NCBI GenBank assembly: GCA_902800045.1
Contig: CADCCZ010000008.1
Coordinates: 24,325 to 88,324, forward strand
Reading direction: 5' to 3'
Length of the DNA stretch: 64,000 bases
DNA from: an uncultured Bacteroidia bacterium
GTDB taxonomy: Bacteria; Bacteroidota; Bacteroidia; Bacteroidales; ML635J-15
Made by a program: the position numbers and the translations under genes. Below, in pieces: positions 1 through 48,263 of the stretch; within the stretch, counting starts at the first letter, position 1, and every line of letters begins with the position of its first letter. Under the pieces are notes generated by a model. The model did not search any database. It saw nothing but the letters and a program-made list of their open reading frames with translations, and was not told where the DNA came from.

Positions 1-3000
1 ATTAAGAGCAAAGTCTCCCGACGAAACATCGTCGATATTCTGTGCCGATGCAGAAAGCAAATCCATCGACAACCCCCTATATGTCGTAAAATTGCCTCCG
101 TTCGAAAGGTTTCCATTAAGTTTCAAGGTCATTGGATTTGTATTGGCAAGGCTAAGTTGACCTCCACTTTCTACAACCAGATTTCCATATACCGACATTT
201 CGGCATTGCTGTCGTTTGACGACAAACTACCGCCATCTTCTATTGTCAAGTTTTTACACTCAACAATATCATTTGCCGGTATATTCACAATATTCCGAGG
301 CGAAGTTATTTCGGGAATTGTAACATCTGTTGTTCTGTCGGGGACAATCTGATAGTACCAGTTTGCACAATTGCACCAATTTTCGTCTTTATATCCCGCC
401 CATACATTGGTACTTGGAACATCGTCGGAAATTGGTAATCTCTGTGTAATAGTAGTGAAATTATAAACTGCATTATTATAATCGCTACTATATTCAAAGT
501 TCTGCCAATTTGAAATATCATTCATCAATCCAATCCACTCGTATTTTGAACGTTCGGGACTAATAACACCTTTATACTTGACACGACCACCATTGCTTGC
601 AAATGTTATATTCGTATTAAAGCATTCGCATCCAGGATACATGGTAGAACCTCTTGTCCCATAATGCTTATCATCTGAACCTGGAATTGGAATCCCATCA
701 TAATTAGGGTTTGGCATCCAACCCGTTGCTGTAAAACCATAAAGGACATTTCCTGTATATTTCATATTATGTTTATGGTTTCCATCAACGCCAGACACAT
801 CAACAGACAAGTCCTCAACCCATTCGCCACCCTGCATTATCCATATTTGATCGTCAGAATTATATCCAAACGAATTTCCAAAGAAAGAAAGATTCCATTT
901 TGAAGTTGCAACCGATCCATTAACATATACAGTTATATGAGAACTTAAATCTGGAATGTCACCTGAAGTTATTGTGGTTTGGCTCGTCTTTATAGTAATG
1001 AAACTGCCTTGAGGCAGAGGCGTATTGTCGTTCCACGTAAAACGCAATATTCCTTCTGAGGTTCCCCACAAGCCAGGAAACTTTCTTTCATATCCATTAT
1101 CTGTCAAGTCGATTGGTGTTCCTTTTTTGATTTGTTTGAAAGTTACAAAACTTATTTCGTCTTCACCTTCATAGCCTGTATTATAATTAACTCCTACTAT
1201 CGCCAAATCACCACGCTCCAACAAAGTTATTGAAGTATAAACAAATGTAATCTGTTCTCGGAGCAAGCAGTTTCCGCTATCGTCGACATAGAAAACTGCT
1301 GCCGTGTATGTTGAACCAGAAGTGAGATTGCTTATCGCAACAGATGTTTCCGAACCCGAGTACACAGCATACTCGCCTGTACTTGTTAGTGTTCCGCTAC
1401 CAAATGCTGCATTGGCGGTAATCGAAGTAAAATCATAATTACTACACGAAGAAGCAATATCGCTGCTTCCCTGCCTGCATATTACAACATAATGACCGCT
1501 TACGCACAACTCTCCGATAAGATTCCAATATAAAGTAGCAGAGGTTTCTCCATTTACAGATATCAGTCCTGTTATTTCTGCATCGCTACCTGTTGTGAAC
1601 GTACAGTCAGAACCATACACTGTTCCATGTCCATTGGTTGCGTATGCACGCACATGATAGGTCGTACATGGACTTAAGCCATCGATAATTTTGTTGAAAC
1701 TTGAGTTAATATTTGTATAGGAAGTTCCAGCTACCGCTACGGTTCCGCTTGCAAGCGTCGGATTGACCGATGTGCCATATACAAAGCCATAGCTTCTGAT
1801 GTGACAGTTTTCGCCGAACGAAGTTATACCTCCGGGTGCTTCTACTGTTACTGACGAAGCTGTTATGTCTGAGAAATTAAGTGCTGTTAACGAAATAGCA
1901 GGGTCAGCTTCGCAGGGAACACAAGATGTAGAGTAGGCAGAATAAGTTGCAACACCACCTCTTTTGTACATATATATAGCGTCTTGTCCCCCATTTTGAT
2001 AAAATCTAAAAAATCCAGATTGATTTGTATTATAGTGAAGAAGTGGTGTTGGATGAAGATTTGCAATAGATATTGCAATATTATTTTCACTGATAAATGA
2101 AAAAGCTAACGGATGATCATCAGCCGTGCTTAAATTAGCAGTCGATGCCAAACCATTAGCATTGCTTGTTTGATATATATAATCTCCTGTTAAAGTTTTC
2201 ATTACATATCCACCAGCTACAGAAACAACTTCCAGGCAATGTGCATCTCCCCATGAGACATTAATAGTATTGCCGACCAAGTTGCTGCCGGGATTTATTG
2301 AAGCACCACCAGCACCTATTCCATAGGTTCCTCCTGCCAACGCTCCATCCATAAATGTTTCATCATCATATGCAATAAGATATTTGCCTGTCCAGTCGGT
2401 TTGCGAAGATGTCACTTTTGTATACTCAGCAGAACCGCCCACACTTACTTCTGCAAATACCGCATAAAAATTCATTGCTCCACTAACGGTAGCGCCTGCT
2501 GGGGTAGTTAAGGTTGGTTCATCGTCGGTTTCGGGGAATTCGGTAGCCGACCAACCTATGAATGTCTTGCCATTGCAATCGCCCGACGTCGGGTCGGCAG
2601 GAACATCGCCTGCAGGAATTGATGAGTCATAATCGTATGTCCTAGTTCTAATTGAAGCACCGCTGACATACCAAGTTACAGAATATTGGTTTGGTACCCA
2701 TTTCGCATATAAAGTAGTATTTGATGTAATAATAAAAGTTGAACCTACAGCACGGTCTGTTCCCGTTCCATCGGCTGCGGTATTCCAGCCAGCAAAAGTA
2801 TGTCCTGTTTTTGCAAGAGAGCCAGTGTTTTCTAAAACTGTTACAGAAGCCCCCGATGAATATGAAGTATTGTCTGTAGGCACAGTGCCCGAGGTGGCAT
2901 CATTAGCATTGTATGTGACGGAATAGGTAGAACTGCCTGATGTATAAGTAACTGCAATGCTTTTGACATAAAAAGCTTTTGCTGTATTTGTCCAACTAAC

Positions 3001-3528
3001 AACAATATTACCCGATTCATTAGGCGTACAAGAATATGCAGTATTTGTTGTTGTAAGAGTTTGGTTTGTCATATAATATGTTCCATCAACAGAAATATTT
3101 AATTTAGCTGTCCCGTCCTTTGCTATAGAACTATTTACAACTATTTCTGTTATCGTATAATTACTAAAATCATTCGTCGTTAACGAAAATGAAGTTGTTG
3201 GATTACTCCCAGACCCTATTTGAATCCCTTTTGCAGTATTGCCATCCCAACCAATATATGTAGCTTCCGTTTGCGTCCAATTTTTTTCATTAAGAGATCT
3301 TGTTCCTGCAGTTGTTTGTAAATTACCACTAGCTGCATTCCAGGTATATGTACTCTGTCCCCACACCACATTCCATCCCCCCACAATCATCACCACCAAC
3401 ATCAATTTCATGATAATGGACCTTACGGAATGCAAGGGAAAAGAGCGCACAGAAGTGCCATGATCTATATTATTCGTAACAGCATCTAACAAATAGGAAT
3501 TAGCTGCTACAGAGCTATTTATCTTCAT
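1..3528 (-). CDS. Large secreted cell-surface protein, partial (C-terminus beyond window start). Contains Listeria-Bacteroides (InlB B-type) repeats. Probable T9SS cargo.
   Basis: The minus-strand frame starting at ATG 3528 has no stop in the stretches I hand-translated (1-360, 2521-2940, 3360-3528). The track has no competing long ORF here. It is probably absent from the track because it has no stop inside the window. The N-terminus reads MKINSS.., and a signal-like MKLMLVVMIVGGWNVVWGQ starts at the alternative ATG 3411. A repeat YSVTYNANDATSGTVPTDNTSYSSGASVTVLENTGSLAKTGHTFAGWNTAADGTGTDRAVGSTFIITSNTTLYAKW lies at 2698-2925, followed by a second partial copy. Confidence 0.8.
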   Translation of the reverse strand, partial: MKINSSVAANSYLLDAVTNNIDHGTSVRSFPLHSVRSIIMKLMLVVMIVGGWNVVWGQSTYTWNAASGNLQTTAGTRSLNEKNWTQTEATYIGWDGNTAKGIQIGSGSNPTTSFSLTTNDFSNYTITEIVVNSSIAKDGTAKLNISVDGTYYMTNQTLTTTNTAYSCTPNESGNIVVSWTNTAKAFYVKSIAVTYTSGSSTYSVTYNANDATSGTVPTDNTSYSSGASVTVLENTGSLAKTGHTFAGWNTAADGTGTDRAVGSTFIITSNTTLYAKWVPNQYSVTWYVSGASIRTRTYDYDSSIPAGDVPADPTSGDCNGKTFIGWSATEFPETDDEPTLTTPAGATVSGAMNFYAVFAEVSVGGSAEYTKVTSSQTDWTGKYLIAYDDETFMDGALAGGTYGIGAGGASINPGSNLVGNTINVSWGDAHCLEVVSVAGGYVMKTLTGDYIYQTSNANGLASTANLSTADDHPLAFSFISENNIAISIANLHPTPLLHYNTNQSGFFRFYQNGGQDAIYMYKRGGVATYSAYSTSCVPCEADPAISLTALNFSDITASSVTVEAPGGITSFGENCHIRSYGFVYGTSVNPTLASGTVAVAGTSYTNINSSFNKIIDGLSPCTTYHVRAYATNGHGTVYGSDCTFTTGSDAEITGLISVNGETSATLYWNLIGELCVSGHYVVICRQGSSDIASSCSNYDFTSITANAAFGSGTLTSTGEYAVYSGSETSVAISNLTSGSTYTAAVFYVDDSGNCLLREQITFVYTSITLLERGDLAIVGVNYNTGYEGEDEISFVTFKQIKKGTPIDLTDNGYERKFPGLWGTSEGILRFTWNDNTPLPQGSFITIKTSQTTITSGDIPDLSSHITVYVNGSVATSKWNLSFFGNSFGYNSDDQIWIMQGGEWVEDLSVDVSGVDGNHKHNMKYTGNVLYGFTATGWMPNPNYDGIPIPGSDDKHYGTRGSTMYPGCECFNTNITFASNGGRVKYKGVISPERSKYEWIGLMNDISNWQNFEYSSDYNNAVYNFTTITQRLPISDDVPSTNVWAGYKDENWCNCANWYYQIVPDRTTDVTIPEITSPRNIVNIPANDIVECKNLTIEDGGSLSSNDSNAEMSVYGNLVVESGGQLSLANTNPMTLKLNGNLSNGGNFTTYRGLSMDLLSASAQNIDDVSSGDFALN

Positions 3529-3563
3529 AAAATACCTTTTACAAAATTCAAATCTAAAACTTA

Positions 3564-3571
3564 CAAATTTA
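3564..3571 (-). promoter_or_regulatory. Candidate Bacteroidota -7 promoter box (TAAATTTG on the minus strand)
   Basis: Matches TAnnTTTG, 35 nt upstream of ATG 3528. Confidence 0.4.
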
Positions 3572-3808
3572 GGGAAAATTCACCACCCAGCACAAGCAAA
3601 AATGCGATTATATATTTAACCGCAAAACATAAATAAGAAAGGTTACACAAATGATAAAATAAGATGATTTAACAAGTTTTTTCGCTATGCTCAAAACTAG
3701 AAGGAATAACACAATCACGAACCGTTAGCTCAGCGTAGCCAACCTTTAGCTCGCGTAAGCAATAACACAAATAAGGTTTTTGCAAGCTCAAAACGAATAA
3801 AATACGAC

Positions 3809-4027
3809 CACGAATAACACGAATTTGCACGAATGAGGGATAGCAATTTTTTCGGCAAGCCGAAAAAAAATATTGGCTACGCCGATCTAAAGATTCGTGA
3901 GGATTCGTGAGATTCGTGGTAAAAAAAATCGTTCCGAGCACTGCGAGGAACCCAGCTATACCTTTAGTGATAAAAATTCGTTCCGAACACCGCAAGGAAC
4001 AAAAAAATAAATACTTTTGTGTTACAA
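3809..4027 (+). repeat. Direct repeat copy 1 (~215 nt) upstream of the GxxExxY gene
   Basis: Modules in order: CACGAAT x3 (3809, 3818, 3828); hairpin T6-CGGC-AA-GCCG-A8 (3847-3870); ATTGGCTACGCCGATCTAAAG; ATTCGTG x3 (3893, 3903, 3912); 21-mers at 3931-3951 and 3980-4000; an A-run; and a -7 box. Confidence 0.85.
4012..4019 (+). promoter_or_regulatory. Candidate -7 box TACTTTTG (inside repeat copy 1)
   Basis: Matches TAnnTTTG, 22 nt upstream of the GxxExxY ATG and preceded by an A-run. Confidence 0.5.
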
Positions 4028-4041
4028 ACATTGATGTAATT

Positions 4042-4419
4042 ATGACTGAAATTATATACAAAAAAGAATCATACGAAATAACTCGTTCAATATATGATGT
4101 GTATAACACCCTTGGAAATGGTTTTCTTGAAAGCGTATATCACGAAGCATTAGAATACGAACTTAGTAAGCGTGGAATTCCATTTGTTTCGAAACCAGAA
4201 ATAAAAATACATTATCATGACATCGTCCTACAACACACTTTTATTCCTGATATTGTATGTTACGACAAAATAATTCTTGAACTTAAATCCGTATCTCAAT
4301 TAATGGATGCACACATAGCTCAAGTTATGAATTACTTGAAAGCATGCAAAATGAAATTAGGTATGCTTGTAAATTTCGGAGAAACCAATGGAGTTGTGAT
4401 AAAACGAATTGTATTATAA
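4042..4419 (+). CDS. GxxExxY protein (PD-(D/E)XK nuclease-fold superfamily), 125 aa
   Basis: Track ORF 3907..4419 trimmed to ATG 4042 because the upstream part is translated repeat. The sequence MTEIIYKKESYEITRSIYDVYNTLGNGFLESVYHEALEYEL carries the family GxxExxY signature (GFLESVY). A TAnnTTTG box lies 22 nt upstream. Confidence 0.85.
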   Translation: MTEIIYKKESYEITRSIYDVYNTLGNGFLESVYHEALEYELSKRGIPFVSKPEIKIHYHDIVLQHTFIPDIVCYDKIILELKSVSQLMDAHIAQVMNYLKACKMKLGMLVNFGETNGVVIKRIVL

Positions 4420-4494
4420 TGTTTTTGCTACACTAAAAAGCACAAAGACAATCACAAAATGTTCTCCGCTATACGCTTCGAACAGAAAAAGCAA

Positions 4495-4713
4495 CCACAA
4501 ATTACACGAATCTACACGAATGAGAGATAGCATGCAATTTTTTTCGGCAAGTCGAAAAAAATATTGGCTACGCCGATCTAAAGATTCGTGAGGATTCGTG
4601 AGATTCGTGGTAAAAGATTCGTTCCGAGCACCGCGAAGGAACCCATTTGTACATTTGTGGTAAAAAATCATTCCGAGCACCGCGAGGAATAAAAAAATTA
4701 TTACCTTTGTGTT
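4495..4713 (+). repeat. Direct repeat copy 2 (~215 nt) upstream of porP
   Basis: Same module order as copy 1, offset by ~690 nt. A 54-nt stretch (tattggctacgccgatctaaagattcgtgaggattcgtgagattcgtggtaaaa) is identical in both copies. 21-mers lie at 4621-4642 and 4670-4690. Confidence 0.85.
4702..4709 (+). promoter_or_regulatory. Candidate -7 box TACCTTTG (inside repeat copy 2)
   Basis: Matches TAnnTTTG only 7 nt upstream of the porP ATG, which would imply a near-leaderless mRNA. Confidence 0.4.
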
Positions 4714-4716
4714 TTT

Positions 4717-5733
4717 ATGAGTAAATGTTTTTACATATCTGCGATTTTAATCCTCTTCGCGACGGCTAACGTCTTCGCACAGGATATTCATTTCTCGCAG
4801 TTCTACTCCACTCCCATGCAGACCTCACCAGCCAACAGCGGTCATTTCGACGGCGACTGGCGTGCCGTGCTCAACAACAAAAACCAGTGGAACTCGTTCA
4901 CAAAGGCATACCGCACTTTCGCAGGTAGCGTCGATTATTCGCATAAGTCGCTGTTTACCAACGACGACCAGTCTGGTCTCGGCATAGTAATCAACCGCGA
5001 TGTAGCCGGCGATGGCAAATTCGGAACCACACAAATTATGCTCGGTGCAGCCTACTACTACCCATTCATGGCAGGCAAAATACTCGCTGGCGCAGGTCTC
5101 TCGGCGGGCTACGCCCACCACGGAATACAGACCGACCGACTCAACTTCGGCAACCAGTACGTAACCGACGGATACGACCCCAACCGCGATTCGGGCGAAC
5201 AATGGCAGAAAACCTCTTTCGGATACTTCGACTGCGCCATCGGTACCAACGTAATACTAAGACTAAAAGACAACTGGACCGCCGAAGCAGGATTCTCTGT
5301 AGCTCACCCGCACCAGCCACACAAAGCATTCCTCGGCAGCACCGACTCGCGACTGCCAGCAAAATGGATTGTCCACGCCACAGGCGACATTAACGTCAAG
5401 GACGATTTCTGGATAGCACCAATGTTCTACAGCATGGTACAGCAGAAATACCTCGAATTCGACATTGGCGCTCTGGGACGTATGAACGTCAACCCCATAG
5501 GGCTGCAGGCCGTTTATTTCGGCATCTTCGCCCGCACAAGCGACGCTGGAATACTTTGCGCCGGAATCCAATACTACAACGTGCGCTTCCTCGTCAACTA
5601 CGACATCAACTTGTCGAAACTCACCAGCATCAGCCGCGGAAACGGAGGTATCGAACTTTCGCTGATATACATCTACTCCAAGCCAAAACCATTAGAAACA
5701 CCATACTACAGGAAATGTCCCGAATTCATGTAA
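4717..5733 (+). CDS. Type IX secretion system membrane protein, PorP/SprF family
   Basis: 338 aa with a signal peptide ending ..ANVFAQ. This is followed by the family-typical DIHFSQFYSTPMQTSPANSG start and beta-barrel-like alternating sequence to the C-terminus. Confidence 0.9.
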   Translation: MSKCFYISAILILFATANVFAQDIHFSQFYSTPMQTSPANSGHFDGDWRAVLNNKNQWNSFTKAYRTFAGSVDYSHKSLFTNDDQSGLGIVINRDVAGDGKFGTTQIMLGAAYYYPFMAGKILAGAGLSAGYAHHGIQTDRLNFGNQYVTDGYDPNRDSGEQWQKTSFGYFDCAIGTNVILRLKDNWTAEAGFSVAHPHQPHKAFLGSTDSRLPAKWIVHATGDINVKDDFWIAPMFYSMVQQKYLEFDIGALGRMNVNPIGLQAVYFGIFARTSDAGILCAGIQYYNVRFLVNYDINLSKLTSISRGNGGIELSLIYIYSKPKPLETPYYRKCPEFM

Positions 5734-5750
5734 CGATAGCAAGAACCGCA

Positions 5751-7739
5751 ATGGTACAGATGCGAAAAACTATCGCATTGTGCCTGCTTGTGGTCGTTTC
5801 GTGCATGGCAATGGCTCAGGAGCGCGATATCAACAGCCTGATATTCAGTGGTGACAATGCCATGAAGCAGAAAAACTTCTATGGCGCAGCAAAACTATAC
5901 GAGGAAGCCCTGAAACAAGACAACAAGATGTACGACGTTGTGTGGAAAATTGCCGAAGCATATCGCCTCGACAACGACTATGCCAACGCGCTGGTCCACT
6001 ACAAGACGCTGGTCGACAAGGTCGAAAGCAAATATCCCGATGCAACATATTACTACGCCCAGATGCTGAAGTCAAACGAGGATTTCATGAGGGCGCAATA
6101 CTTCTTCAAGCGGTTCATGACAGCCGCAAAGAAAGACAATTTCAAAGGCGACAAGGCGAAGGCCGAGCAGTCCGAACAGGAAATCCTGAACTGCGAGTAT
6201 GCGTGGAAACAGCAGAATCGTCCGCAAGCAGTGGAAATAAAGCATACCGACGAAGGTATGAACTCGGTTTACAGCGATTTTGGAGCTTCGCTGTCGGGCG
6301 ACAAAGTGCTATTTTCGTCGATTCGTCCCGAAAACGATTCTTCAAAAACCTATAATTCAAGGATCTACAGCACCGAAACCGATAATTTCGCCTCGGTTGC
6401 CGAACTTGGTCTCAACACTCTTTCGCCAGCCGACATTTCGAATCCATGCATGAGCAACGACGGCAGCCGGATCTACTTTTCGCTTACCGACAACTTCGCA
6501 ACAGGCAACACATACATCTACCAGTGCACACGCACCGACGACGGCTGGAGCGAACCGCAGATCTTGCCCGAAAAGATAAATCCACAGGGCTACAATTCGA
6601 CCCAACCTCACCTCATCGAGTTTGGCTATCGTCCCGACATACTGCTGTGGTCGAGCAACCGACCTGGAGGCGAAGGTGGTTACGATATATATTCGTGCGA
6701 AATTCTACCCGACGGCAGTTTCGGAACAGTGAAAAATATCGGACGCCCGATAATCGAAGACGAACGCTTTGCCCAGTTTTACGACACCGTATCGCTGATA
6801 AACACGCCTGGCGACGAAATCACACCTTTCTACACAACAACCGATTCTACATTGTATTTCAGTTCCAACCATTTCCAGACAATAGGTGCATTCGACATTT
6901 TCGCCACCAAAGGGAATTTTAGGGTCTGGGATACGGTGAAAAATCTTGGCTACCCGATAAATTCGGCACAAAACGACATCTACTACAAGGTTTATCCCGA
7001 AGAAGGCATTGCCTTTCTCACCAGCAACCGCAAAGGCGCACTTGCACAGACCCACCAGAGCTGCTGCAACGACATCTTCTACTACAACATCGAAAAGTTC
7101 GTTAGCGAAGAGGAACGCATAGCAATGGAAACCGAAATAAGAATAGCCACGCTCACACAGCGCACGCGTCTGCTGGTGCCGATAAGCTTATACTTCCACA
7201 ACGACATTCCAAATCCAAACTCCTGGGACACAGTCACAAACCAGAACTACAGCGACACTTACTTCAGCTATATGCAGATGCAGGAAAAATATCGTCGCGA
7301 GTTCTCGAAAGGTCTCGACCGCACCCGTCGCGAGCAGGCTGTCGACAGTATTGACGTCTTTTTCTCGGACATGGTCGAGGAAAACTACAACCGCCTCATC
7401 GAATTCACCAAGATGATGAAGGAACTGCTCGAAAGCGGACAGAAGGTGGCAATAACGATAAAGGGCTTCACCAGTCCTCTCAACACAGTTGAATACAACA
7501 ACAACCTTGCCAAACGAAGGATTTCGTCGCTTGTGAACTTTTTCGACGAGTACGAAGACGGCGTCTTGCGCCAGTACATCGAAAGCGGTCAGATTGAATA
7601 CAAATTCGTAGCATTCGGCAAGACAATGGCAGCTGCCAACGTTAGCGACGACCGCAACGACCAGCGTAATTCGGTCTATAATCCTGCCGCCGCCCGCGAA
7701 CGACGGATAGAGATAATAGCTGTGGAGATAGAAAAATAA
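5751..7739 (+). CDS. PorE-like lipoprotein (TPR, TolB/PD40-like beta-propeller and OmpA_C-like peptidoglycan-binding end)
   Basis: Track ORF 5556..7739 trimmed to ATG 5751 because the upstream part overlaps porP. It has a lipoprotein-type signal MVQMRKTIALCLLVVVSC and TPR-like helices (YGAAKLYEEALK, YANALVHYKTL). PD40-like repeats are present (MSNDGSRIYFS, TPFYTTTDSTLYFSSN). The C-terminal end is OmpA-like (KGFTSPLNTVEYNNNLAKRRISSL ... RERRIEII). The domain order matches P. gingivalis PorE as I recall it. Confidence 0.6.
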   Translation: MVQMRKTIALCLLVVVSCMAMAQERDINSLIFSGDNAMKQKNFYGAAKLYEEALKQDNKMYDVVWKIAEAYRLDNDYANALVHYKTLVDKVESKYPDATYYYAQMLKSNEDFMRAQYFFKRFMTAAKKDNFKGDKAKAEQSEQEILNCEYAWKQQNRPQAVEIKHTDEGMNSVYSDFGASLSGDKVLFSSIRPENDSSKTYNSRIYSTETDNFASVAELGLNTLSPADISNPCMSNDGSRIYFSLTDNFATGNTYIYQCTRTDDGWSEPQILPEKINPQGYNSTQPHLIEFGYRPDILLWSSNRPGGEGGYDIYSCEILPDGSFGTVKNIGRPIIEDERFAQFYDTVSLINTPGDEITPFYTTTDSTLYFSSNHFQTIGAFDIFATKGNFRVWDTVKNLGYPINSAQNDIYYKVYPEEGIAFLTSNRKGALAQTHQSCCNDIFYYNIEKFVSEEERIAMETEIRIATLTQRTRLLVPISLYFHNDIPNPNSWDTVTNQNYSDTYFSYMQMQEKYRREFSKGLDRTRREQAVDSIDVFFSDMVEENYNRLIEFTKMMKELLESGQKVAITIKGFTSPLNTVEYNNNLAKRRISSLVNFFDEYEDGVLRQYIESGQIEYKFVAFGKTMAAANVSDDRNDQRNSVYNPAAARERRIEIIAVEIEK

Positions 7740-7826
7740 GAATTGTTTTGCCCATGTAAAAGAAAAGACGTACTTTCGTGTTTTATTTTAAAGACGAAAA
7801 ACGAACAAAAAAACAATAAAATTATC

Positions 7827-8849
7827 ATGGCTACAAACAGATTCATAACCCTTGACGAGGTTATAATTCAGAGACAATCGGCTTTCAAATATGCAAAGGG
7901 CGAATTGTCGAGACTTTTAAGCAACATTGGTCTTGCTGCTAAAATCGTAAACAACAGTATCAACCGTGCCGGCCTCGAGACCAACATCCTCGGCGCTACC
8001 GACAACATCAACGTGCAGGGCGAAACCCAGCAGAAACTTGACGTGTTCGCCGAAGAAATGTTCACCAAGGCTTTGCAAGCTTCGGGCATGGTGGCTGGTA
8101 TCGCATCCGAAGAAGAGGATGACATCATCATCTTCGACGATGAGCTTTCGCTCAACAGCAACTACGTCATCTGCATGGACCCGCTCGACGGAAGTTCAAA
8201 CATCGACGTTAACGTATCGGTTGGTACAATCTTCTCAATCTACCGCCGTATTTCGAAGCCAGGCACCAGGGTTGTAAAGGAAGATTTCCTCCAGCCCGGC
8301 AACAAGCAGGTGGCAGCAGGTTACATAATCTACGGTTCGTCAACAATGCTCGTTTACACAACTGGTCTCGGAACCACAGGTTTCACCTACGAACCGTCAA
8401 TCGGCGAGTTCTGCATGTCGAACGAACTGATGGTAACTCCTGAAAAGGGCAAGATTTACTCGATTAACGAAGGTAACTACCTCAAGTTCCCCGAAGGAAT
8501 CAAGAGGTACTTGAAATATGTTCAGGAAATCGACAAGCCGACAAGCCGTCCTTACACTTCGCGCTACATCGGTTCTTTGGTTGCCGACTTCCACCGCAAC
8601 CTGCTCAAGGGTGGCGTTTACATCTATCCGCGCACCGCATCGTCGCCAAACGGAAAAATCCGTCTGCTCTACGAATGCAACCCGATTGCTTTCCTCGCCG
8701 AACAGGCTGGCGGCAAGGCAACCGACGGATACGGACACCGCATCCTCGACATCGTTCCTACCGAAATACACCAGCGTACACCATTTGTTGTAGGCTCTAA
8801 GGAAATGGTTGAGAAAGTAGAAGAATTTATGTCAGAATATGGTGACTAA
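7827..8849 (+). CDS. fbp: Fructose-1,6-bisphosphatase, class 1
   Basis: Track ORF trimmed to ATG 7827 ([11 protein letters not shown]). Metal-binding motif [13 protein letters not shown] is present. Length is 340 aa, with full-length similarity to class 1 FBPases. A strong terminator follows. Confidence 0.93.
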
Positions 8850-8870
8850 GACCAAATACAATAATGAACA

Positions 8871-8911
8871 AAAGCAACTGCAACAATGTTTGCAGTTGCT
8901 TTTTGCGTTTT
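8871..8911 (+). terminator. Rho-independent terminator after fbp
   Basis: Perfect 12-bp stem aagcaactgcaa/ttgcagttgctt, 6-nt loop, then a T-rich tail. Confidence 0.85.
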
Positions 8912-8912
8912 A

Positions 8913-8920
8913 TAAATTTG
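8913..8920 (+). promoter_or_regulatory. Candidate -7 box TAAATTTG
   Basis: 35 nt upstream of ATG 8956. Confidence 0.45.
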
Positions 8921-8955
8921 AATATAAGGGAAAAAAGAATTAAAAAAAGACTATC

Positions 8956-11900
8956 ATGAAGCACAGACTTATACTGCTTTTAGCAATTACGGCCTATGCC
9001 TTAAGCCTTAAGGCACAAGTAATTGGCACTCCGCAAATGCTTGTGCAGGATCTTGATGAAAGCATCTGGGAAACATCAGGAGTTATTTTCCACAACGGAA
9101 AATTGTGGACTCACAACGACTCGGGAACCGAAGCCAAAATCTACTCTGTCGACACAGCAACAGGAGAAATACTCGAAAGTAAAGTGATAAGAGGAGTAAG
9201 CCACTCCGACTGGGAAGACATTGCCAAAACTCCGACTCACCTTTTAATCGGCGACTTTGGAAACAATATCAGCGGAAAAAGGACTAACATGAAGATACAC
9301 AGGGTAAAATGGGAAGACATTGAAAACCCTGACCTCGATACTATTGACGCAAGAAGCATATCGTTCAGGTTCAATTCGGCATACTATCCCGAATCGGACG
9401 CAGCCAAGAACGACACCAAGTTCGACTGCGAAGCCATGATGGTAATGAACGACACGATATACATCTTCACCAAAAACTGGAGAGATCAGGATTGCTACGT
9501 TTACGCCATCCCAAACAAGGCCAACTACACATATACAACGTTGTATCCTATCGATACCATACAGCTCGAATACATGGTCACCGGTGCCGACTACGACTAT
9601 GCGACCAACTCGGTTGCCCTCTGCGGATACACTTACGACAACGGCACAATCCCAACTTCAAATCCGTATATAACAATATTCTACGGATTTACAGGACATG
9701 ATTTCCAGTCGGGACAGGTAGAAACAAAAGAATACACAAGCCCCACATCGATAATATTCCAATCGACAGGAATCACCTACAACCAGATTGAAGGCATAAC
9801 ATTCCGCGACAGCGGTCGCCTGTGGATTACAAACGAACGATATACAAGAAGCATACAGGGCATACAAGCGCTGACAATTCCAGCACACCTCAGGGAAATT
9901 CCGCTTAGCGGGCTTCCAATAGTGAATACCGACGAAGAGCCGTCGTTCCCCGAAGAACCGCCAGCCATCGTAATCAACTTCGAAGCCAGCGACACCCTGA
10001 TTCTCAGAGGACAAAGTGTAAATTTCACCGAAAGTTGCACACAAAACCCGACAGCCTACCGATGGACATTCACGAGGGGAACACCCTCTTCGTCAACCTT
10101 ACAGACTCCTCCTGCCATCAGGTACAACACTGCAGGACAGTTTAATGTTTCGTTAAGGGCAACCAACGACAACTGCCAGCTCACAAAGACAAAATCGAAA
10201 TACATACACGTACTTGATACCGCCACTGCAGCTTTCACATCCAACGTCATGGCAGCATGTGTAAACGAACCCGTTGAATATTACGACAATAGTTTGGGCG
10301 CATACGAAATAGAATGGTACTTCGAAGGTGGAAATCCAGAATCCTCCACCGAGACCAACCCTATTGTAATGTATGAAAACCCAGGATTGTACGGAGTTAC
10401 GATGATTGTAAACAATCCGCTTAGCACAGACACAATCACAATCGAAAACTACATACAGGTAGTTCCTCATTCAGAAGCCAATATTATAGCCCTACAGGGA
10501 ACCGATGTCTCGCAGGGCGGATCGCTTATGTTTGCCACAGAACCAGGCGAAGGCAACGAAGCATGGTGGCATTGGGAATTTGAAGGCGGAACGCCAGCTA
10601 CGTCCGACGATCAATTTCCTATGGTAACTTACGAAGAACCAGGAGTTTATTCAATATCACTTACTGCCAACAACGGAACCTGCGAACATACTACGCTGCT
10701 TGAACAGGCCGTTACGGTTTATCCGCCAATTAGCGCAAGCTTTACTGCCGACATCGACACTCTATGCTCGGGCTACGAAGTGCACTTCGAAGGTTCGGGA
10801 GAAGGCGTAACCGAATACAGCTGGATGTTTGTAGGTGGCACCCCTGGCATGACAACCGGACAAAACCCAACAGTAACATACAATACCCCAGGTACTTACA
10901 GCGTAGTATTGACAGCCTCAAACCCAGTCGACACCACATTGGTCATTATGGAAAACTACATCGTTGTTGTTCCCCGCGTACACACCGAACTTGCAATGGT
11001 TCCCGAAGGTGAGTTTGCAACCGTCGGCGACACCTTGACATTCAACAACACAAGTGTAAACGCAACCTCGTGGATGTGGACTTTCGAAGGAGGAAGCCCA
11101 AGGACTTCAACCGAAGAAAATCCAAGCGTGACATATAGCAGACCTGGCGAATACGGACTGACACTCGTAGCCAGCAACGAATTCTGCACAGGCGAGACAT
11201 TGAATTATAGCATAACAGTTTATCCGCAGATAGAATTCAGTTTCAATGCCGACACCACAAAGGTTTGCGCAGGCGGAGAAATTAATTTCCGCAGCACCAA
11301 CAACCAAGGTTCGGTAACATACCGTCACTGGGAATTCGAAGGCGGTACGCCCGCAATATCGGATGCACAAAATCCTATAGTTACATACAACGAACCAGGA
11401 ACCTACAGGGTAAGTCTCCAAGTTATGAATCTCGCAACCAGCAAGTTTATGTCTATCGACAGCATGATAACCGTTTATCCAGCTGCAAAGGCAGAATTCA
11501 CGGTTGCAGACAGCAGCGTAGTACAGGGACAGTCGCTCGAGTTCACAAGCCAGTGCACCAACGCCGACCGTATCGAATGGGTATTCGCAGGCGGCAGCCC
11601 AAGCGTATCGACCGACCAGAATCCTACAATCCAGTACAACATTATCGGCACATTCTGGGTATCGCTCGAAGCATGGAACGAACATTGCAGCGACAGGATA
11701 ATCGTCGAAAACCTCATCGAGGTAACCGACAGCACCAGTCAAGGTGGCGATGGCATCGATGAAATTACAAGCCGATTCTCGGTTTTCCCCAACCCGACAT
11801 CGGGAACATTGAACATCGAGAACAGCGGGATGCCTTATTCGTTTACAATCTGCACACAGACAGGTGCCCTGCTGTTGGAGTCGGACGAACATATTGAATC

Positions 11901-26781: not shown

Positions 26782-27024
26782 AGACGCAATTCATTGCGTC
26801 TCAACAGAACGGCGAAGCCATTCAAACCCAGAAACGTGCGAAGCACATTCAAACGCCGCAGGCATTGAAACGGCGTCAGCCACAGAAACAGCGAAGCGAG
26901 AAACGTGCGAAGCACACTGAAACGGGCGTAGCCCATTCAAACGCCGCAGGCATTCAAACGCCGCAGGCATTCAAACAGCGAAGCATAGAAACGTGCGAAG
27001 CACACTGAAACAGCGTCAGCCCAC
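26782..27024. repeat. Hairpin AGACGCAAT-TC-ATTGCGTCT followed by a ~17-nt degenerate tandem array (~12 units) of GNA-loop mini-hairpins
   Basis: Units have the form (C/G)AAAC, then a GC mini-hairpin, then CA(C/T)(A/T). Examples are gtgc-gaa-gcac, gcc-gca-ggc, ggc-gtca-gcc and gggc-gta-gccc. Confidence 0.85.
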
Positions 27025-47965: not shown

Positions 47966-48263
47966 CACAGAAACGGCATCAGCCATTCAAACAGCGAAGC
48001 GAGAAACGCCGAAGGCATTGAAACGGCGTCAGCCATTGAAACCTTGAAACGGCGTCAGCCACAGAAACGGCGAAGCTATTCAAACAGCGAAGCGATAAAC
48101 GCCGCAGGCATAAAAACGGCGTAGCCACAGAAACGTGCGAAGCACATAGAAACTTGAAACGCCGCAGGCATTGAAACGGCGTCAGCCACAGAAACGCCGA
48201 AGGCATTCAAACGGCGAAGCCACTGTAACGGCGCCAGCCACTGAAACGCCGAAGGCACAAAAA
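47966..48263. repeat. ~17-nt degenerate tandem array of GNA-loop mini-hairpins (~18 units), second locus
   Basis: Same grammar as 26802-27024, with units such as ggc-gaa-gcc, gcc-gaa-ggc, gcc-gca-ggc, ggc-gta-gcc, gtgc-gaa-gcac and ggc-gtca-gcc. The array head and hairpin lie at 47793-47841. Confidence 0.85.

Follow-up and report, generated by a model that had tools for sequence, protein, structure and literature searches.

A GxxExxY nuclease gene between direct foldback repeats ahead of porP, and the association of its family with phased-word repeats in Bacteroidales

The stretch of DNA analysed here (64,000 nucleotides, hereafter the window; C8:24325-88324 of a 3.2-Mb rumen Bacteroidales assembly) carries, ahead of the type IX secretion gene porP, a 125-aa gene of the GxxExxY nuclease family, which lies between two direct copies of a foldback repeat. 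Flank comparisons across the family revealed a very strong association, and GxxExxY genes appear to be physically coupled to repeats of short phased words family-wide. The locus may be one case of a family-wide design in which a Cas4/RecB-like PD-(D/E)XK gene is coupled to phased-word foldbacks and the nuclease recognises its own arrays, and we hold the chances of this reading to be about even. No description of repeat brackets around the GxxExxY/PF13366 family was found in the literature, and the function of PF13366 was listed as unknown in a 2012 survey of the PD-(D/E)XK superfamily (PMC3424549).

The survey covered the flanking sequence of 47 non-identical PF13366 genes, drawn from 40 Bacteroidales genomes, and the 4182 open reading frames (ORFs) of the window's genome served as background. 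In most of the 47 genes, three or four words of 7 nt stand a few nucleotides past the stop codon with a period of 9-11 nt; the generic word is nTnnGTG, the final copy ends in ...GTGG(T)AAAA, and complementary words are found 5' of the ATG in many GxxExxY genes. A phased TNNGYG/CRCNNA chain lies no more than 100 nt downstream of 22 of the 47 genes but of only 8 of the 4182 ORFs (p = 1.6e-39), and a repeated-word bracket encloses 25/47 genes versus 57/4182 ORFs (p = 3e-32). Some genes (e.g., L101, L098 and L139) lie between two whole foldbacks, as in the window. The word varies from gene to gene (ATTCGTG, CTTTGTG, CTCTGTG, TCTGCG, CTTAGTG, CTTAATG, ATTTGTA and others), and on the protein tree it changes 29 times, compared with 33-39 changes in 300 shuffles; the word thus appears to track the protein clade, which in part reflects simple vertical inheritance. 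The same word is borne by sister proteins that belong to different bacterial families (e.g., L100/L096, L122/L138 and L121/L124), and different words are carried by different GxxExxY genes of one genome, for instance in G031, G016 and G057. Tandem or neighbouring GxxExxY genes were seen in L102 (G022:C11) and L096/L135 (G057:C1), and the two neighbouring genes of G057 carry different words, CTCTGTG and CTTTGTG. Many GxxExxY genes are located no more than a few hundred bases from the end of a contig of a metagenome-assembled genome (L095, L098, L099, L102, L097, L134 and others), which suggests that the flanking repeats break assemblies and that the family may therefore be under-counted.

The next homologues of the window's protein, which are 71-74% identical, are not located at porP. 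In L083-L087, G034 and G027 the homologue begins 3 nt past an Exo_endo_phos gene, and its neighbour in L088-L093 and G010 is a Zn-peptidase gene. In all members of the clade the stop codon is followed, after 0-1 nt, by GTTTTTCGC-NNN-GCTCAAAAC, about 10 nt, three copies of CCACGAAT, a loop, two or three copies of ATTCGTG and GTAAAAAA; the block of three CCACGAAT is tandemly multiplied in some of the homologues away from porP, and a mini-hairpin module of the type at 3676-3697 of the window begins directly after the stop codon of every gene of the clade. Because the same 3' element stands at the stop codon in different positions, this comparison shows the gene and its 3' foldback to be one co-inherited accessory cassette that comes, goes and relocates. 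In the window's genome, the Exo_endo_phos and Zn-peptidase sites are both without the gene and without the unit, and the breakpoint at the Exo_endo_phos site lies 20 nt 5' of the ATG, with the last codons of the upstream gene replaced. No conserved sequence was found 5' of the ATG among the three cassette contexts compared. The Exo_endo_phos and Zn-peptidase contexts have a common right flank of 83-85% identity, and they were therefore counted as one position with a rearranged left side, which downgraded an earlier count of three independent insertion sites.

The cassette is chromosomal. A phage vehicle was rejected, the protein matching only 2 records, both of one archaeal virus, among 50,697 phage records, and so was a plasmid vehicle, since just 8 of 72,556 plasmid records matched and most of these were megaplasmids. 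Some further observations were made at the second position. The GxxExxY gene of L083-L085 is the last of a tight string (1285-4378) of HigB toxin, HTH antitoxin, Endonuclease_NS and Exo_endo_phos genes, and when it was inserted Exo_endo_phos had its final codons and stop replaced. The orthologue behind Exo_endo_phos in L110 (G027:C10:17582-18141) is a pseudogene in two frames with an intact 3' CACGAAT foldback. At the Zn-peptidase locus of L088, L090, L091 and L093, a gene for a 146-153-aa Y1_Tnp protein (PF01797) lies about 1.5 kb 5' of the GxxExxY gene.

At porP itself the gene comes and goes between strains. One porP is present in each of the 39 genomes of the genus, and for 13 of these, as well as for G026 and metagenome contig L082, the region upstream of it was read. 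The nuclease gene was absent ahead of porP in the 13 congeners, including the nearest two, G008 (PorP 99% identical) and G002 (96%), both of which have one degenerate right half-unit before porP. G010 (PorP 78%) has three ATTCGTG words there, as a third gene-less allele with a solo half-unit, and its nuclease gene is located elsewhere. In G034, G027 and G011 the 330-nt porP spacer lacks any unit, and the G012 spacer holds other word modules, including two inverted TTGGC...AAG copies, and no CACGAAT foldback. The unit-gene-unit layout of the window was found again in G026 (PorP 90%) and L082, with different module content; L082 has one extra unit downstream, and both of its flanking copies contain the same additional TTGGC...AAG module (95% over 106 nt). 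The number of units varies from strain to strain.

An earlier note on this DNA had proposed that the gene and one repeat unit were inserted in front of porP. This is borne out by the gene missing at porP in the 13 congeners, by the homologues that keep the same 3' element at the stop codon at another chromosomal position, and by the G+C content, which is 29-31% in the nuclease gene versus 52-56% in porP. If the sequence upstream of porP had simply been duplicated locally in tandem around an old resident gene, without any mobility, this would explain why the copies are direct and adjacent and include the porP promoter box; the divergence of the gene from that of G026 (dS, synonymous divergence, 0.64; 89.6% aa identity) is also about that of PorP (90% aa), which fits long vertical residence. 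However, gene and unit are both lacking in the two nearest relatives and in ten others, and the same gene and 3' unit occupy a different chromosomal position in congeners. This explanation is largely refuted by these empty sites and the second location, and we regard it as very improbable, the more so as the gene is AT-rich relative to its neighbours and identity along the repeats is very uneven.

The porP site of G008 (C19, locus L149) has a different upstream gene, and its homology to the window begins only at about 4657. Although PorP is 99% identical, no more than the last ~70 nt before porP are related, so that the conserved porP operon and a variable upstream segment join at the right repeat. 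The region is thus a recombination junction, a mosaic in which variable surface-protein sequence gives way to the conserved type IX secretion operon. A reading of the G008 allele as a clean excision scar was set aside because homology is absent 5' of ~4657 and the solo unit is degenerate. About 600 nt 5' of porP in G010 (C61, L161), the upstream region is filled by a long array of ~17-nt GTTTCTnnGGCTGACGCC units of the mini-hairpin family.

The product of the gene matched TIGR04256 (GxxExxY) with 137.6 bits (cut-off 35; profile positions 2-116 of 116) and PF13366 (PDDEXK_3) with 137.8 bits (cut-off 22), in both cases over the full length. In the numbering of the window's protein, the motif residues G27, E30 and Y33 and the catalytic residues D70, E80 and K82 are invariant in an alignment of 63 sequences. 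No relative of solved structure was found by sequence search. An AlphaFold2 model with a pLDDT of 96.7 was compared with the PDB by Foldseek, and the best matches were Cas4 SSO0001 (4ic1, E 7e-5, TM 0.61) and Cas4 4r5q, followed by lambda exonuclease, RecE, MGME1 and Holliday-junction resolvases (Hjc); the predicted fold is the restriction-endonuclease-like alpha/beta fold of the Cas4/RecB-like type. The ratio of nonsynonymous to synonymous substitution rates (dN/dS) was 0.08-0.15, and 0.08 against the orthologues in L082 and G026, which indicates strong purifying selection on the gene. A genome-wide search found it to be the only PF13366 gene of the window's genome.

The direct repeats around the gene, which the earlier note had described, were recovered by repeat search and by blastn against the genome with 84.8% identity over 231 columns and an offset of 687-692 nt (Table 1). 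The note's identical core does exist, and it measures 61 nt at 100% (3864-3924 = 4555-4615) rather than the 54 nt claimed. Outside it the repeat search returned direct-repeat blocks of unequal identity, namely 83% in the CACGAAT arm (3799-3845/4486-4532), 96% in the central T-run/GC/A-run hairpin (3847-3869/4539-4561) and 76% in the distal part with two GTTCC-N11-GGAAC hairpins (3922-4023/4612-4713). A fully identical core between flanks of 76-83%, together with the extra module common to both L082 copies, shows that the flanking copies evolve in concert. Each copy also contains the inverted repeat that had been read in it (3807-3834 versus 3893-3920, 28 nt, 82% complementary), in which base pairs form between CCACGAAT-CACGAAT-CACGAAT and ATTCGTG-ATTCGTG-ATTCGTGG and a T-run/CGGCAAGCCG/A-run hairpin lies at the centre, and the further inverted partner of the TTGGCTACGCCGA.CTAAAG module was likewise present at 3715-3747 (33 nt, 82%). 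As single-stranded DNA (ssDNA), the two copies had folding energies of -30.1 and -26.1 kcal/mol, with z-scores of -7.8 and -6.0, respectively; none of 200 shuffles was as stable. The two 21-nt GTTCC-N11-GGAAC elements 3' of each foldback are weak hairpins on their own (z ~ -1; -1.1 for copy 1). A reading of T6-CGGCAAGCCG-A8 as an intrinsic terminator was rejected because the T-run lies 5' and the A-run 3' of the stem on either strand. Rfam gave no match at E up to 1 in positions 3400-5000 and none at gathering score in the whole window, so the repeats are explained by no known RNA family.

Both repeats end in a TAnnTTTG box, as had been noted, which is TACTTTTG in the left copy and TACCTTTG in the right. 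Bacteroidota promoters have TTTG at -33 and TAnnTTTG at -7. In all 13 relatives examined, TAnnTTTG is found 7-8 nt 5' of the porP ATG, whether the repeat is present or not, so the box is porP's own, and such a short distance implies a leaderless or nearly leaderless porP mRNA; this short spacing was seen in every genome examined (L149-L161; window 4702-4719). The TACTTTTG box lies within the duplicated segment, 22 nt 5' of the nuclease ATG at 4042, with no clear TTTG 19-21 nt 5' of 4012, and the duplicated porP box probably drives the nuclease gene. The suggestion that the repeat is a portable promoter did not hold as a general property. Since the box follows only 3 of the 71 hairpins of the genome, all three at this locus, and the unit at the other position faces a convergent gene with its terminator, the repeat family is not a portable promoter.

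The same observations bear on a wider role in RNA or expression, in which the foldbacks would be processing or stability stems, insulators or promoter modules for the small gene and porP. A gene inside a long stem is the layout of the ORF-bearing intervening sequences (IVS) of 23S rRNA, and repetitive extragenic palindromes (REP) can stabilise mRNA. The locus recalls the former layout, the foldbacks have high stability, the unit adjoins the stop codon in the manner of a 3' untranslated element, and each copy ends in TAnnTTTG directly before an ATG. Against these points stand the rarity of the box elsewhere, its ancestry at porP independent of the repeat, the convergent gene and terminator at the other locus, the orientation of the T- and A-runs and the lack of any Rfam match, and we think such a role quite improbable.

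The repeat is modular, and a genome-wide pattern search showed that every module is also dispersed without a nuclease gene in the window's genome (G000). CACGAAT x3 forms ten exact arrays that are spread over six loci, the TTGGCTACGCCGAGCTAAAG module has 18 copies, and the 21-nt hairpin has 71 loose copies, which are often arrayed with a period of ~75 nt over as much as 1.5 kb. Non-coding mosaic arrays of at most 1.5 kb (G000 C4:290400-291900 and C12:2200-2800) contain at least 12 GTTCCGAGCCnnGCGAGGAAC hairpins at a ~75-nt period, which vary at the two central bases of the loop; the blocks between the hairpins consist of GTTGTC/GACAAC, ATTCGTG and TTGGC...AAG words. A CRISPR-like reading of the ~75-nt-period arrays was rejected because their 'spacers' are word repeats and the hairpin also stands singly in many contexts. 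The mini-hairpin family was also seen at 26831-27023 and 47981-48257 of the window. Y1_Tnp (PF01797) gave four partial matches in the genome, all away from the locus, the best with 46 bits over model positions 37-121.

This dispersal could mean that the gene is a passenger in recombination-prone repeats like REP or bacterial interspersed mosaic elements (BIME), and that the nuclease does not act on them. The arrays would then be made or moved by replication slippage, host recombination or another enzyme, e.g., a Y1/RAYT-like transposase (RAYT, REP-associated tyrosine transposase), and small accessory genes, including GxxExxY genes, four-helix-bundle genes and others, would be captured, exchanged and lost at the repeats. 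The long non-coding arrays, the Y1_Tnp ORFs (the one 1.5 kb from the gene in L088-L093 included) and the homology breakpoint at the right repeat in the comparison with G008 favour it. On the other side, the 3' element stands 0-1 nt past the stop codon in every clade member and is absent together with the gene at the empty sites, and the enrichment is 80- to 460-fold above ordinary genes. Nor does a passenger agree with different words within one genome, with words shared by sister proteins across bacterial families, or with a complete catalytic site under strong purifying selection. On balance we consider a passenger gene possible but rather unlikely.

Several observations weigh against recognition of the arrays by the nuclease, and two of them also speak for a passenger. 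Genes for four-helix-bundle proteins (PF05635, '23S rRNA IVS protein'), which are not nucleases, have the same bracket with other words, in 3/3 examined in the window's genome and 15/20 sampled in relatives. Arrays occur in genomes without any PF13366 gene, as in G008 (the hairpin family and three CACGAAT arrays), G011 (eight arrays) and G013 (14 TTTGTG arrays, the type that flanks the G006 gene), and most word arrays of the window's genome (e.g., GTTGTC, GGCTAA and GTTTCT) have no cognate nuclease gene. The remaining full CACGAAT units of the genome are only ~73% identical to the porP units by blastn, so there is no sign of recent multiplication. Neither a target-site duplication nor a conserved 5' end was found at the three contexts, the clade's gene lies outside the foldback and not in its loop, only two cassette positions are fully independent, and the background of the survey was drawn from the window's genome alone. 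The three PF05635 genes of G000 (C2:318039-318425, C7:52554-52895 and C2:274289-274675) each lie between inverted arrays of a distinct word, these being GTTTCT/AGAAAC, ACAGGC/GCCTGT and CAATTAACAATGG with its complement.

The layout at porP could have arisen as follows. A foldback unit resident at porP, as kept solo by G008, G002 and G010, would have been the integration substrate and recombined homologously with the unit on an incoming gene, by a Campbell-type single crossover or by break repair, to give unit-gene-unit, and the duplicated -7 box would now express the nuclease gene. More speculatively, the nuclease would recognise its own word arrays, most likely folded or single-stranded, and this recognition would promote breaks, gene conversion or copying of the gene and foldback, with the gene-less foldbacks as relics, targets or non-autonomous derivatives. 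By analogy, the relation of nuclease and array would resemble that of RAYT and REP or of Ssn and NTS. A bolder version is that minimal selfish elements of an unrecognised class exist whose sequence-specific enzymes are the GxxExxY proteins, and that these cut their own phased CACGAAT foldback, probably as a hairpin or cruciform; repair would then copy the gene and foldback in a homing-like manner, the gene-less foldbacks would be derivatives or targets, and the porP layout would be the footprint. We find this version doubtful.

The coordinates of the features are collected in Table 1. The nuclease gene is followed by porP/sprF and a PorE-like gene, and its 5' neighbour is a divergent gene for a giant surface protein of the type IX secretion system. 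The ORFs of window 1-9000 encode the surface protein, the nuclease, PorP, the PorE-like protein and FBPase, and no recombinase is among them.

Table 1. Features at the nuclease locus and porP (window coordinates)
Feature	Position	Strand	Basis and remarks
Mini-hairpin module GTTTTTTCGC-TAT-GCTCAAAAC (T-run, 2-bp GC stem, triloop, A-run)	3676..3697	+	Sequence, downstream-flank comparison
Inverted copy of TTGGCTACGCCGAnCTAAAG module and one CACGAA word	3715..3747	-	82% complementary to 3868-3900 and 4559-4591
Second mini-hairpin module (GGTTTTTGCAAGCTCAAAAC), 5' of left foldback	3776..3794	+	Sequence
Left direct repeat, whole unit	3799..4023	+	Repeat search, blastn
Left foldback CAC arm, CCACGAAT-aa-CACGAAT-ttg-CACGAAT	3808..3834	+	Repeat search, word pattern, folding
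Left foldback central hairpin, T6-CGGCAAGCCG-A8	3847..3870	+	Repeat search, folding
TTGGCTACGCCGATCTAAAG module, left copy; asymmetric bulge in foldback	3873..3892	+	Pattern search; 18 places in genome
Left foldback GTG arm, ATTCGTG-agg-ATTCGTG-ag-ATTCGTGG	3893..3919	+	Period 9, 3 copies; folding
21-nt GTTCC-N11-GGAAC hairpin, copy 1	3931..3951	+	Pattern search
21-nt GTTCC-N11-GGAAC hairpin, copy 2	3980..4000	+	Pattern search
TACTTTTG, Bacteroidota -7-type box, duplicate of porP box	4012..4019	+	Inside repeat; presumed promoter of nuclease gene, putative function
GxxExxY / PDDEXK_3 gene, 125 aa	4042..4419	+	Motif and catalytic set intact, Cas4/RecB-like predicted fold
Degenerate mini-hairpin module GTTTTTGCTACACTAAAAAG, 1 nt past nuclease stop codon	4421..4440	+	Sequence, flank comparison
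Right direct repeat, whole unit	4486..4713	+	Repeat search, blastn
Right foldback CAC arm, CCACAAAT-ta-CACGAAT-cta-CACGAAT	4495..4521	+	Pattern search, folding
Right foldback central hairpin, T7-CGGCAAGTCG-A7	4538..4561	+	Repeat search, pattern search, folding
TTGGCTACGCCGATCTAAAG module, right copy	4564..4583	+	Pattern search
Right foldback GTG arm, ATTCGTG x3, end GTGG	4584..4610	+	Pattern search
GTTCC...GGAAC hairpin, copy 3, one extra A	4621..4642	+	Pattern search
ATTCC...GGAAT hairpin, copy 4; G008 homology starts about here	4670..4690	+	Pattern search, G008 comparison
TACCTTTG, ancestral porP -7 box, 7 nt 5' of porP ATG	4702..4709	+	Kept in 13/13 relatives
porP/sprF	4717..5733	+	TIGR03519, 139.9 bits; type IX secretion; flanking host gene, outside cassette

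PF13366/TIGR04256 is a very large family, and the locus offers it a candidate substrate, the 118-nt CACGAAT/ATTCGTG foldback (3805-3922) and its words, with natural controls at hand in the empty sites, the pseudogene and the non-cognate words. If the nuclease acts on the repeats, it would be a third, structurally unrelated small nuclease tied to a dispersed hairpin repeat, beside RAYT and Ssn, and it would be domesticated with the repeat or parasitic on it and a possible source of new DNA nucleases specific for a sequence or a structure. Otherwise, the bracket shared with four-helix-bundle genes would point to a general gene-capture property of the repeats.

Among the known systems, REP/REPIN-RAYT resembles the locus in that short palindromic repeats flank a small gene present in single copy and are themselves dispersed through the genome as foldback doublets, most of them without a gene, and in that the repeat sequence differs by gene lineage and forms mosaic intergenic arrays. 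The locus encodes a PD-(D/E)XK nuclease, whereas RAYT is an HUH/Y1 enzyme; its repeats are three phased 7-nt words, whereas REP is one palindrome of 20-35 nt; and here the gene stands between two whole direct-orientation foldbacks and genomes with the repeat and no gene are common. The Ssn nucleases, which belong to the GIY-YIG superfamily and act site-specifically on ssDNA, are associated with NTS/SRM hairpins, and 71% of the homologues have a repeat nearby and 42% have it on both sides (PMC11893778); experiments on Ssn showed that ssDNA is cut near the repeat and that natural transformation is affected (PMC11893778). The likeness lies in a small nuclease gene with dispersed hairpin repeats on one or both sides, in similar flank statistics and in a repeat that varies with nuclease lineage, while Ssn has the GIY-YIG fold and single hairpins and GxxExxY is a PD-(D/E)XK family with phased word arrays. 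The 23S rRNA IVS ORFs and PF05635 cassettes also have a small ORF enclosed by or adjoining long complementary arms, but they are a non-nuclease family, and a true IVS lies inside rRNA and is excised as RNA, whereas the locus is intergenic with its ORF outside the foldback. Integron cassettes likewise consist of an ORF that lacks a conserved 5' end and, immediately behind it, an imperfect palindrome with an ssDNA fold, and they too occur in different contexts. Unlike them, the locus has no integrase or attI within ~4 kb on either side, its cassettes are not arrayed, and its palindrome consists of phased words that also form long gene-less arrays. With insertion sequences (IS) and miniature inverted-repeat transposable elements (MITE) that have multi-site terminal inverted repeats, the family shares many members in which a gene lies between inverted multi-word arms, and gene-less foldbacks elsewhere; it differs in that no recognised transposase fold, no target-site duplication and no multiplied identical copies were seen, and here the unit is 3' of the gene and directly repeated. 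With a different class of enzyme and no integrase in the vicinity, the locus belongs to none of these systems, and its nearest published analogues are REP/RAYT and Ssn/NTS.

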